DNA from: a virus | Lineage: Duplodnaviria; Caudoviricetes | Length of the DNA stretch: 64,000 bases | Virus record (IMG/VR): IMGVR_UViG_3300044991_001466 | Direction: 5' to 3' (one strand) | Part shown: positions 49,046 through 61,936 of the stretch, one piece after another | Position numbering within the stretch: the first letter of the stretch is position 1 | Layout of the letters: each line of letters begins with the position of its first letter | Position numbers and translations under genes: made by a program | The notes under the pieces: model-generated | The model's input: the letters and a program-made list of their open reading frames with translations, nothing else | Told to the model about the DNA's origin: nothing | Databases searched by the model: none

Positions 49046-49073
49046 AAAAAAAGGTCCTTAAAAAGGACCTTTT
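49046..49073. terminator. bidirectional terminator at the tmRNA 3' end
   Basis: AAAAGGTCCT/AGGACCTTTT. Confidence 0.8.
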
Positions 49074-49074
49074 G

Positions 49075-49468
49075 TGGAGATGACGGGACTCGAACCCGTG
49101 TCTTTCCGGTTCAACAATAAATGACTACACGTTTATTCAATTAGTTCTTAATTGACAAATAGAAGGTTAATATCAGGAAACCTACAATACTGTTCCTAAC
49201 CGGATTTTCAAGAGCCGTCAAGTTTGCTCCAACACTCTGGGGTTATGTTCCACCGAAGGGACTTCTGTTCCTAGGTTATATGTCCATCGACCCGATTGTA
49301 GTTTCGCCTTAGGCTACTGCTACGTTAGAAGTTGCAAGTAAACCTGCAATTTCCATGTTTGTGTAAACGTTTCCGTTTGAAATTTTCCACCGTAGATTTA
49401 AGTCATAGATGAAGTCTGACTACGTGCCATTTATCCCTGATACCTGAAATCAATTCCATGGCATCCCC
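49075..49468 (-). ncRNA. ssrA: tmRNA; tag ORF 49374-49309 = GNVYTNMEIAGLLATSNVAVA*
   Basis: 5' GGGGATG pairs with 3' CATCTCC-A (G3-U70), T-arm GGTTCGAGTCC, tag frame; -7 promoter at 49482. Confidence 0.92.
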
Positions 49469-51255: not shown

Positions 51256-51846
51256 TTAAGGGGTTACTTCAAAAACTAAATTTACCCTAACTTTATTTGA
51301 TGCATTAATGAAGGTATGTAGGGAATTTCCAATCGAATAGACTGAACCTGATTTTAAATTATGAATAGAATTTAATTCACTATCATTTAAAAAAAACTCA
51401 TTAAACTCATCAAAATTTTCAGGGAAATCTTTTCTCATTTTATTATAGATTTCACCTTTTTCATGTAGTTTTTGTTCAAGTAAACATTCATAATTATAAA
51501 ACTTAACGTCATCATTTAATGGTAAAATATACCTGTTTAATCCTCTATCAATGTGAAAATTAATCTCACCCTTTTGTGCGTACTCTAAATAAAATAAGAT
51601 GTTAATATTAAATAATTTTTTTAAACTATCAATAAAGTTAGTTAAATCATCTTTTACTCGATAACTAATTTCATGAATAGAATCTAAACTATATACTTTC
51701 TTAAAATTTGGGTCTCTATTATAAATGATGTAATTAACATTATGATTTAAAAAATGTTTTAAGTGAAAAGAATCGGAATTATAAAAATCAATGACTTTTG
51801 TCAAATAAACATCATCTATTTCCGTTATCTTTTTTAATCCTTCCAT
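51256..51846 (-). CDS. 2OG-Fe(II) oxygenase-like (Asp/Asn hydroxylase-type)
   Basis: HID (HxD), RYILPL, distal H in LHTFIN...RVNLV. Confidence 0.6.
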   Translation of the reverse strand: MEGLKKITEIDDVYLTKVIDFYNSDSFHLKHFLNHNVNYIIYNRDPNFKKVYSLDSIHEISYRVKDDLTNFIDSLKKLFNINILFYLEYAQKGEINFHIDRGLNRYILPLNDDVKFYNYECLLEQKLHEKGEIYNKMRKDFPENFDEFNEFFLNDSELNSIHNLKSGSVYSIGNSLHTFINASNKVRVNLVFEVTP

Positions 51847-51863
51847 TTATATAATTATATGGC

Positions 51864-51899
51864 AAAAAAAAAAGTCAGAATTTCTTCTGACTGGTTTTT
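51864..51899 (-). terminator. terminator of the large-RNA transcript
   Basis: AGTCAGAA/TTCTGACT plus T10 on the minus strand. Confidence 0.8.
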
Positions 51900-51963
51900 C
51901 TTTAGGCCGAACGGTTTTAAAACGTTCCGATTCCACCACTTTGTTTTACTAAACAAAGAAAAT

Positions 51964-52815
51964 AAAACACTGAGAATACATGTCTTAATGAGAATCTTTT
52001 AAACGGATTATTGTTTCCCGTTTGTTTCCACTACCTTTTGAGTAGTAACCCTCAGCGGCGGTCAATTAGATTAACCAATCCTAAAGTCATCAGATACTCT
52101 TTTAATACTCATTACTCTTCGAGATTGCCATCCCAATTAAACCTTATGAGTTTAGAGAACTTTTTTAAAAATCATATTGGGATTGAGTCCCTTTATGGCC
52201 GTGAACCCCTCACGACTAAGTAGCCACCTGTCTCCAATGACTGACGAACACTTTTTCTTTTATTTTTTTAGTTTTCACCATTGAAAGTAAAAGTTTGGTT
52301 TGCAGATTAGGAAAGTAGCGGTTCGTCGACCAGCCAAGCCACCTTTTGAGCGACTCGATACTAAACTACTCTCTAAGACATCCCTGCCTTCATATTTTTG
52401 GTTTCCTTCAGAATTAAACCCTTGGTAGAGTTTAATTAAGGATGATAACAGCACCACCTGTTTTCCACCATACCTTTCGGTTTTAAAGATACCATTATAT
52501 TGAACAACACAATTATAAGGTTGGAGACCTTATTTCTTGTAATAGTTCTACAAGTTATTCTTATTGTTCTTCCGAACTCAGTCAAACGACCTGCATCGCT
52601 TGACCACCAAACCACTTTCCCTACAGTGTTACCCTCAGTACTTAAGGTTCGATGATACCTTGCTTGCCTACTCGAGTTCTATTTCTAAAACCGCAATCTC
52701 ATTCAACCAAATGAAATTACTTTATCCCACTTTCATGGTTTATTTTGTTGACCATAGGCGGCCAATATTTTTAATTCAAAGAACTTTTTCTTTCGATAAA
52801 ACCACCTTTGTGATT
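51964..52815 (-). ncRNA. large ornate RNA, GOLLD-like (boundaries approximate)
   Basis: ~850 nt without credible CDS between a -7 promoter (52823) and a terminator; many stems; twice CTCAAAAGG; 3' hairpin AAGACAT-GTATTCTCA-GTGTTTT resembling my recollection of the GOLLD 3' end. Confidence 0.62.
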
Positions 52816-52854
52816 TCTTTTACAAATATACAACTTATATTTGGTAATAAAAAA

Positions 52855-53088
52855 TTATTTAGAAACTTTTTTATTATTTTTTTTCTTTTCAACCTTAACT
52901 TCGTAAGTTCCACCCATATCGTGTTGAGTTTCAACAACTTGTGTTTTTTTATTACCCTTCCAATCTGATTTAGGGATAAATTTCCAAACACCGCTAGCCA
53001 CTTTTTGGTCTGCATCAATATCGTCAGTTCTACGAATTTCTCCTAATGTATAGGATTTTGTTTCTTTAATTGCTTTAATACATTTCAT
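52855..53088 (-). CDS. small basic hypothetical protein
   Basis: clean ORF, KFIPKSDWK. Confidence 0.65.
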   Translation of the reverse strand: MKCIKAIKETKSYTLGEIRRTDDIDADQKVASGVWKFIPKSDWKGNKKTQVVETQHDMGGTYEVKVEKKKNNKKVSK

Positions 53089-53141
53089 ATGTCCATGTTT
53101 TAATTATAATAAAATATACAAAAAAATATTGATAAAAAAAA

Positions 53142-60861: not shown

Positions 60862-60878
60862 AATTCTTATTTTTAGAG

Positions 60879-60952
60879 TGGACCAGATAGGAATCGAACC
60901 TATTACCTTCACATTATGAGTGTGCCGCTCTAACCTAGTGAGCTACAAGTCC
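60879..60952 (-). tRNA. tRNA-CAU, probably Ile2 (lysidine) rather than Met
   Basis: cloverleaf, loop CTCATAA, C4-G69, A73; G27-A43 and T6-T67 mismatches. Confidence 0.8.
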
Positions 60953-60962
60953 AAAATTTACG

Positions 60963-61036
60963 TAATCCCGTTTGGATTCGAACCAAAGACCCACATCTTA
61001 GAAGGATGTTGCTCTATCCAACTGAGCTACGGAACC
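60963..61036 (-). tRNA. trnR-UCU: tRNA-Arg(UCU)
   Basis: ACATC-CTTCTAA-GATGT; GGTTCGAATCC. Confidence 0.92.
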
Positions 61037-61042
61037 AAAATT

Positions 61043-61363
61043 AACACTATCGTCTTTGAAAGTTTTTATTTAATCGTTATGCCTTACGGCTTATTGTTAT
61101 TTTACTCTCAAGTTTATCTAAACGTGAATCCAATACACGATAAACATCGTTCATTGCATTTTCACGTTCTCTGTTTTGATTTTCAATCTCTCTTCCGAGA
61201 CATTGTTCTACTTCTCTAATTTCTTTGTTTAGTTTATTAACCTTAACAAAGGCAATAACCGCAACTACCGCAACTGCGATAACCACAACTATTGACATTC
61301 CTAAAATAAATGATAATATATCCATATTAATTTTCTCCTTTATTTTCAAAGAACGATAGTGTT
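61043..61363. repeat. 19/20-bp inverted repeat flanking ORF 61077..61325
   Basis: AACACTATCGTCTTTGAAA (61043-61061) / TTTCAAAGAACGATAGTGTT (61344-61363). Confidence 0.85.
61077..61325 (-). CDS. single-TM + coiled-coil protein (82 aa)
   Basis: MDILSFILGMSIVVVIAVAVVAVIAFV; AGGAG upstream. Confidence 0.7.
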   Translation of the reverse strand: MDILSFILGMSIVVVIAVAVVAVIAFVKVNKLNKEIREVEQCLGREIENQNRERENAMNDVYRVLDSRLDKLESKITISRKA

Positions 61364-61378
61364 GTAATAAAATATAAC

Positions 61379-61411
61379 AAAAAAAACCCGAATAAAAAAA
61401 TTCGGGTTTTT
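61379..61411 (-). terminator. terminator after tRNA-Ser
   Basis: AAAAACCCGAAT/ATTCGGGTTTTT. Confidence 0.8.
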
Positions 61412-61416
61412 CTGTT

Positions 61417-61507
61417 TGGCGGAGAGAGTAGGATTCGAACCCACGGGCCAGTTTCCCGGCCTCCTGATTTCAAGTCAGGTGCAATAGACCAACTCTACCA
61501 TCTCTCC
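61417..61507 (-). tRNA. trnS-UGA: tRNA-Ser(UGA), encoded CCA
   Basis: CCTGA-CTTGAAA-TCAGG, long variable arm, G73-CCA. Confidence 0.95.
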
Positions 61508-61510
61508 AAT

Positions 61511-61617
61511 TTTCCCGTTTTTTCCTCACATTTAGCCCAATCAACAGTGAGACATTGATTGGATTTTGATCATAGAAGCTTATAAGGTTTCCCCATTAAG
61601 CCGTTACCACGGGCAAA
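61511..61617 (-). ncRNA. candidate small structured spacer RNA
   Basis: CCCGT/ACGGG closing stem, CCAATCAA/TTGATTGG hairpin. Confidence 0.35.
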
Positions 61618-61626
61618 CTAAATCAG

Positions 61627-61700
61627 CGGACTAGACGAGACTCGAACTCGCGACCTTCGGCGTGACAAGCCGACATTCTAACCAACTGAACTACCAATCC
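61627..61700 (-). tRNA. trnD-GUC: tRNA-Asp(GUC)
   Basis: TCGGC-TTGTCAC-GCCGA, G73. Confidence 0.93.
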
Positions 61701-61707
61701 AAAAATT

Positions 61708-61890
61708 ACAGGTTTTTTGTACCCTTCCGTACATCATAACAAATACATTCCTATATCTGTGGTTACATTTTCGCCATTGGGTAATTACTCCCGACTTATA
61801 GTAACTCTACCCTCACCGCTTTGATATCTAGAATCAAGACAGCTCTTTGGGATTTATATACCGTGGGGTTACACCACAGTCGTCACCTGT
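61708..61890 (-). ncRNA. candidate ~183-nt structured RNA heading the tRNA operon
   Basis: ends pair (ACAGGT/ACCTGT), CTGTGGT/ACCACAG, TTGAT/ATCAA, TGTAC/GTACA; -7 promoter at 61895. Confidence 0.55.
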
Positions 61891-61936
61891 TTTACAAAGA
61901 TAAGAAATAATTAATGATATACAAAATTATTTCAAA

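Follow-up and report, generated by a model that had tools for sequence, protein, structure and literature searches.

A GOLLD RNA gene on the minus strand of a 64,000-nucleotide phage sequence and its comparison with env-38 and other giant RNAs

Introduction

GOLLD RNAs are giant phage RNAs that build cages composed of RNA only. ROOL (RF03087), another large ornate phage RNA found near tRNAs, likewise forms an RNA-only cage, in this case an 8-mer.

For env-38, a GOLLD RNA from a marine metagenome, cryo-EM showed a nanocage built as a 14-mer (Kretsch et al. 2025, PMC12286853). In that report, the env-38 linker is described as disordered and located inside the cage, while the L21a loop is described as a self-kissing contact between half-shells (bridge B8) whose central dinucleotide switches between GC and CG (PMC12286853). 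Other members of the family are known from a Lactobacillus brevis prophage and from mycobacteria (Weinberg 2009; PMC6582537). They are located in prophages or chromosomal tRNA islands and often contain a tRNA or pseudo-tRNA inside the linker (PMC6582537).

The gene considered in this work lies in a stretch of viral DNA of 64,000 nucleotides, which was analysed as a whole and is called the window. Its RNA belongs to the same Rfam family as the Lactobacillus brevis and mycobacterial GOLLDs and shares with them a mobile-element context with tRNAs nearby, but its subtype is practically absent from prokaryote genomes and its linker carries no tRNA. ROOL is unrelated to it in both sequence and fold. 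The likeness to env-38 includes the same two-domain architecture, the same type of 5' domain, common 5' GAAA hairpins, the invariant GUGGUG and UACCA loops, the CAAAAG loop, an A/U-rich linker and a 3'-terminal UCUCAG hairpin. The core starts at the same place in both RNAs (UUGGCCGC in the window, AUGGCCGC in env-38), and from the first core base onwards the two sequences are collinear by eye. The differences are that the central dinucleotide of the L21a-type loop is AU in the window instead of GC, that its hairpin following the long-range stem is shortened, and that env-38 is located downstream of a tRNA-Met, whereas the window GOLLD has no adjacent tRNA. The window also has a leader with a boxA-like element and a 3' extension of some 75 nt; here the comparison covered the env-38 RNA itself. 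The env-38 sequence (PMC12286853) was compared partly by eye and otherwise through two short blocks, because IMG/VR contains no exact match to a 5' motif of env-38.

Identity and Limits of the RNA Gene

The region 52830-51864(-) is a single promoter-to-terminator unit of about 950 nt without a credible gene. An earlier note, prepared from the raw sequence, had described it in these terms, and the description is borne out by a promoter at 52830-52823(-), a terminator at 51892-51873(-) and the open reading frames overlapping the unit, which are either short or, in the case of one of 134 aa (52564-52968, plus), located on the opposite strand. An Rfam scan of the whole 64,000-nt window, including the RF02032 search that the note had proposed, returned a GOLLD match at 52373-51967(-) with 298.8 bits (E 1.7e-84). 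This match covers model positions 1-416 of 416 without truncation and scores about twice the gathering score of 150 bits. The unit is a GOLLD RNA, because its full-length match to RF02032 is well above the gathering score. Neither ROOL nor any other Rfam family was reported at E <= 1 on either strand of 51700-53100, GOLLD being the sole family found there.

The RF02032 model represents only the conserved 3' domain of GOLLD, and the remaining half of the RNA was delimited by comparison with relatives. The core, 52766-51967, has 800 nt and consists of a structured 5' domain followed by the conserved 3' domain; its limits were set in this way because the more distant relatives align over 52766-51971 only. 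The minus-strand unit is, very probably, a phage-encoded GOLLD RNA gene of the env-38 type, belonging to a known family and not to a new class. The wording of the earlier note, a GOLLD or a related new class, therefore stands in its first half, supported by RF02032 and by homology to env-38, and is refuted in its second half by RF02032 and the env-38 blocks described below. That note had left the strand unstated and had overlooked a tmRNA gene. In effect, the GOLLD gene was recognisable from the raw sequence at that first stage, and the strand, ends and anatomy of the present copy are now fixed.

Promoter, Leader and Terminator

The promoter contains the -7 element TATATTTG at 52823-52830 (minus strand), which is of the Bacteroidota type TAnnTTTG and has a conserved position in relatives. 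All 16 aligned relatives have TAnnTTTG at this position, and among the matches listed 101 of 115 loci have it no more than 200 nt upstream. It is not enriched in the whole window (121 found, 111 expected), and the weight of the assignment lies in conservation across relatives. Transcription would start a few bases past the promoter, near 52816. The ends of the unit at about 52816 and 51865 give roughly 950 nt, which matches the size estimated in the earlier note.

The leader opens with a hairpin, AAAUCAC-AAAG-GUGGUUU (52799-52816, minus strand), recognised from the sequence and the alignment and located before a boxA-like element. This hairpin is optional, because it is found in the window and in three relatives (L110, L029 and L082) and is absent or different in the others. 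The boxA-like element itself, GTTCTTTGA at 52776-52784 (minus strand), precedes the GOLLD core by 10 nt and was identified by a pattern search and by conservation. It presumably corresponds in kind to the boxA of rrn operons, which it resembles. The element is invariant in 16 of 16 close relatives, and among the matches listed 96 of 118 loci have it at most 120 nt upstream. Its two occurrences in the whole window, with 0.83 expected, are not significant, and here too the weight comes from conservation across relatives. A literature search with the boxA string returned unrelated primer matches only.

At the other end of the unit, a terminator search identified an intrinsic terminator at 51864-51892 (minus strand), composed of an 8-bp stem (51892-51873) followed by U10. 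It is conserved in the alignment of close relatives.

A separate observation concerns the leaders of two relatives, L071 and L020, in which, by eye, a tRNA-like stretch seems to lie between the promoter and the boxA-like element, while ARAGORN finds no tRNA in either locus. If this stretch is real, GOLLD would be co-transcribed with a tRNA in that clade.

The 5' Domain

The 5' domain (52374-52766, minus strand) was assigned to the env-38 type on the basis of covariation and env-38 blocks. An RNAalifold consensus of 53 sequences with less than 93% identity contains 107 pairs, of which 106 are canonical in the window and 82 show compensatory double changes. The covariation sought for the structured RNA of the earlier note was, in other words, found. 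Across the 53 relatives, 96.6% of the pair cells are canonical, a share that falls to 38-42% if each 3' partner is displaced by 1-3 columns. Two blocks of env-38 occur in this domain in order, at 52579-52546 (31/34) and 52673-52653 (18/21), with 0 expected by chance.

All six stem pairs that had been noticed from the sequence alone are present, and four correspond to helices of the family, while two are coincidental alternatives. The 5'-domain consensus includes two of the family helices, ATAAGG 52515-20 with CCTTAT 52528-33 and AATTAAAC 52412-19 with GTTTAATT 52430-37. The pair CTTGTA 52536-41 / TACAAG 52549-54 was rejected as a family helix, since its bases have other, covarying partners: CUUGU is paired to a GCAAG some 115 nt upstream, and ACAA to a downstream UUGU. 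A long-range pairing of ACUGAGGGUA with UAUUCUCAGU, present in the minimum free energy fold, was likewise rejected. Its 5' bases belong to a local covarying hairpin, and relatives with ACCGAG or AGUGAG, read by eye, leave CUCAG unchanged.

Two adjacent loops of this domain, GUGGUG and CUACCAAG (52399-52351 region, minus strand; alignment A2 columns 362-373 and 394-401), are complementary over 5 bp. Both are invariant or nearly so in 53 of 53 relatives and show no covariation, and their complementarity makes them a candidate tertiary or quaternary kissing contact.

The 3' Domain, Linker and Contact-Type Elements

The conserved 3' domain, aligned by Rfam to RF02032 positions 1-416, occupies 51967-52373 (minus strand). 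Within it, the third family helix among the six noticed stems, AAACGG 52001-06 with CCGTTT 52018-23, is part of the Rfam consensus. The pair ATCCCAAT 52130-37 / ATTGGGAT 52176-83 is not a family helix, as its bases belong to two separate local hairpins of the consensus. The segment at about 52250-52300, previously seen as an A/U-rich central insert, is indeed A/U-rich, but it is a known variable linker (52250-52310, minus strand) with one small hairpin, aligning to the unstructured model positions 65-135 and corresponding to the disordered linker of env-38. A tRNA search found no tRNA inside 52250-52310.

Covariation also reveals pairings outside the nested consensus. A pseudoknot-type pairing (52243-52327, minus strand) joins GACGAAC 52327-52321 to GUUCGUC 52249-52243 and crosses the first 3'-domain hairpin. 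It consists of seven consecutive covarying column pairs, is perfect in the window and has compensated variants in L003, L020, L085, L091 and L013. In the second such pairing, 52228-52223 covaries with 52059-52054, again perfectly in the window.

In the solved structure, cage contacts are made by an A-rich L14-type loop, a self-complementary L21a dinucleotide and a conserved L21b loop. The window contains candidate counterparts, namely the CAAAAG loop of the first 3' hairpin, a self-complementary AU, and the GGCA loop of the hairpin following the one with AU, the loop names having been mapped through the env-38 text and approximate numbering; the two pseudoknot-type pairings are further candidates. 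The AU is the central dinucleotide of the L21a-type hairpin (loop CAUAA; 52141-52151, minus strand), which was located in the alignment and assigned to L21a by approximate nucleotide numbering. Most of 44 relatives have GC here and six have CG, whereas the window, L031 and L022 share AU, and every variant is self-complementary; in the rows of L021 and L078, two hairpins appear swapped. L031 is a close relative of the window and L022 is unrelated, so AU is found in two separate lineages. An AU dinucleotide would make a weaker self-kissing contact than GC.

The 3' Extension

Between the end of the RF02032 model and the terminator lies a tail of about 75 nt, composed of a covarying hairpin, the invariant UGGUGGAA and a second hairpin. 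The first hairpin, CUUUGUUU / AAACAAAG (51939-51958, minus strand), is supported by covariation and is located outside the Rfam model and past the end of env-38. Its stem, CTTTGTTT 51939-46 with AAACAAAG 51951-58, is the last of the four family helices among the stems noticed earlier, and it is replaced by CUUGGUAU/AAACCAAG in L025 and by UUUAAUUUUG/AAAAUUAAA in L082. The single-stranded motif UGGUGGAA(U/C) at 51930-51938 (minus strand) separates the two hairpins and shows no variation across the 10 distinct tails containing it, though the flanking stems vary. The second hairpin (51905-51929, minus strand) has a conserved AAAACC loop and a stem that differs among relatives and stays pairable, the evidence for it being weaker than for the first.

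Of 61 loci among the matches listed whose tail region could be read, 13 carry this extension, all in the closest clade. The possibility that it is a degenerate tRNA was rejected, as neither ARAGORN nor Rfam at E <= 1 finds anything there.

Relatives and Host

A 27-nt pattern of the 5' domain was found in at least 120 viral contigs of IMG/VR and once, in a 501-bp fragment, in 185,579 prokaryote species genomes. Because this single 501-bp contig is the only occurrence in those genomes, the env-38-type 5'-domain subtype is one of phages, as opposed to prophages or cells. The fragment (L239, JALRFG010000313.1) had been binned into a Methylocystis metagenome-assembled genome and is probably a mis-binned piece of a phage.

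The closest relative among the matches listed is L031, 88% identical over 52923-51865. Two uncultured huge phages, LR756502 (642 kb) and LR745206 (634 kb), carry more distant homologues, with RF02032 scores of 275-287 bits and a homologous 5' domain that aligns with the upstream 390 nt of the window RNA at 65-74% identity, although theirs are directly flanked by tRNAs and have an extra insertion in a 5'-domain hairpin. The nearest relatives of the window, up to 88% identical among the matches listed, are other IMG/VR contigs and not these two phages.

The phage origin and Bacteroidota context suggested earlier are plausible, given the IMG/VR viral relatives, the conserved TAnnTTTG and the homologues in the two huge-phage records. 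Al-Shayeb et al. 2020 described huge-phage genomes predicted to infect Bacteroidetes, and the type of promoter together with the resemblance in size of LR756502 and LR745206 to such genomes makes a Bacteroidota host plausible. The related-locus search found no bacterial relative of the neighbouring metallophosphoesterase and gave no host clue from it.

Genomic Neighbourhood

Genes for a glycosyltransferase, a metallophosphoesterase and sugar-nucleotide functions surround GOLLD, and the metallophosphoesterase gene directly follows it in most close relatives. A phage tmRNA gene (49072-49468, minus strand), identified by Rfam and by a tRNA/tmRNA search, lies 2.4 kb downstream of the GOLLD terminator. 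In 10 close relatives, it is located about 1.9-2.0 kb downstream, so that a tmRNA downstream of GOLLD is a conserved synteny of the closest clade. The larger distance in the window is due to an inserted open reading frame of 196 aa (51256-51846, minus strand) between GOLLD and the metallophosphoesterase gene, which has no Pfam or PHROG match.

Upstream, Rfam and a tRNA search place four tRNA genes (Asp, Ser, Arg and Met) at 60878-61700 (minus strand). The tRNAs are distant, as previously claimed, but the nearest one was measured at 8.0 kb and not at 7 kb. The window GOLLD has no adjacent tRNA, which is common in its subtype, unlike many described GOLLDs. Of the 66 loci among the matches listed whose flanks reach at least 1 kb, 26 lack a tRNA and 19 have one within 300 nt. 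PHROGs and Pfam gave nothing for 9 of the 10 largest open reading frames of the window, and no phage hallmark gene was identified inside its 64,000 nt.

Alternative Explanations

The stems of this RNA look strand-symmetric by eye, a 134-aa open reading frame exists on the plus strand at 52564-52968, and a T-run follows the terminator hairpin on both strands. These features could suggest a plus-strand transcript or a protein-coding region, for example that open reading frame, but the probability of either is negligible. The functional strand is the minus strand, because the minus-strand core folds with a minimum free energy of -219.8 kcal/mol and a z of -6.9 (0 of 20 shuffles as good), against -164.2 kcal/mol and a z of only -1.9 for the plus strand, and because the 5'-domain helices of 53 relatives, read on the minus strand, contain 973 G-U cells against 25 A-C cells. 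In the window itself, 18 of the 107 5'-domain pairs are G-U and would become A-C mismatches on the plus strand. Moreover, RF02032 matches the minus strand only, the neighbouring genes and the conserved promoter are on that strand, and substitutions among relatives are compensatory in helices and follow no codon pattern. It is similarly far-fetched that the unit represents a new class of ornate RNA resembling GOLLD in size and context only. The Rfam model covers just the 3' half, and the 3' extension lies outside any model. However, RF02032 is matched in full at twice its gathering score, the 5' half matches the env-38 blocks, and a covarying structure is common to more than 100 loci with the same 5'-domain motif.

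Another explanation, improbable though to be taken more seriously, accepts the RNA as a true GOLLD homologue and supposes that its clade does not form the closed 14-mer, the product being, through the weak AU self-kissing contact or interference from the tail, a monomer, a half-shell or an assembly of other stoichiometry. The AU in place of GC at L21a is in its favour, as is the tail of about 75 nt, absent from env-38, which carries UGGUGG, complementary, as read from the sequence, to the invariant 5'-domain loop CUACCA. Against it, all consensus helices and conserved loops are intact, and AU can still pair with itself; its separate origin in two lineages, that of the window and L031 and that of L022, is what maintenance of the contact would predict.

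Possible Function and Significance

For the preferred reading, a GOLLD RNA of the env-38 type, a sequence of events can be proposed. In the infected cell, host RNA polymerase would transcribe the unit into a stable RNA of about 950 nt that is not translated. Its boxA-like leader might act as in rRNA operons and keep so long an untranslated RNA from being terminated prematurely (Rho-type). By homology with env-38, the RNA would then assemble without protein into a closed multimeric nanocage like the env-38 14-mer, in which the 5' domains would form the caps, the 3' domains would provide the rings and half-shell contacts, and the A/U-rich linker would lie inside. GOLLD is located on the same strand as the tRNA cluster and the tmRNA, and between them. 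It is possible, albeit rather unlikely, that the target of the cage is the translational machinery of the cell under infection, for instance by holding or shielding tRNAs or parts of ribosomes.

A bolder proposal is that GOLLD of this freshwater-phage clade carries a built-in assembly switch and belongs to a phage 'stable-RNA regulon', which is considered very improbable. The invariant UGGUGG of the tail could pair (6 bp, one of them G-U) with the invariant 5'-domain loop CUACCA, which is also a potential partner of the invariant GUGGUG loop. By competing with the cap contact or adding to it, the tail would control the timing of cage closure, while the half-shell contact would be weakened by the change from GC to AU. 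If this were true, the boxA-like leader and the conserved tRNA-GOLLD-tmRNA order would tie cage formation to the takeover of host translation.

The value of the locus is small and comparative, consisting in an alignment in which the env-38 subtype is represented by more than 100 phage loci, and no feature of the present copy alters existing knowledge of the GOLLD family. The AU loop variant, the conserved boxA-like leader, the clade-specific 3' tail and the tmRNA synteny could guide experiments on cage assembly.

Additional Observations on the Flanking RNA Genes

The tmRNA has a predicted tag peptide, ATSNVAVA, ending in VAVA, while tmRNA tags usually end in ALAA. A promoter element, TATTTTTG, lies 14 nt upstream of this gene, and no boxA-like element accompanies it.

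A second exact copy of GTTCTTTGA, reading GTTCTTTGAAAA, is located at 61346-61354(-), after the terminator of tRNA-Ser, where it precedes a small open reading frame followed by tRNA-Arg and tRNA-Met. This copy could be a chance match or a read-through signal. Further upstream, 61700-61925(-) contains a full Bacteroidota-type promoter, TTTG-N19-TATCTTTG, and then about 190 nt of a GC-richer leader without open reading frames before tRNA-Asp; this stretch could represent a small RNA or a structured leader.
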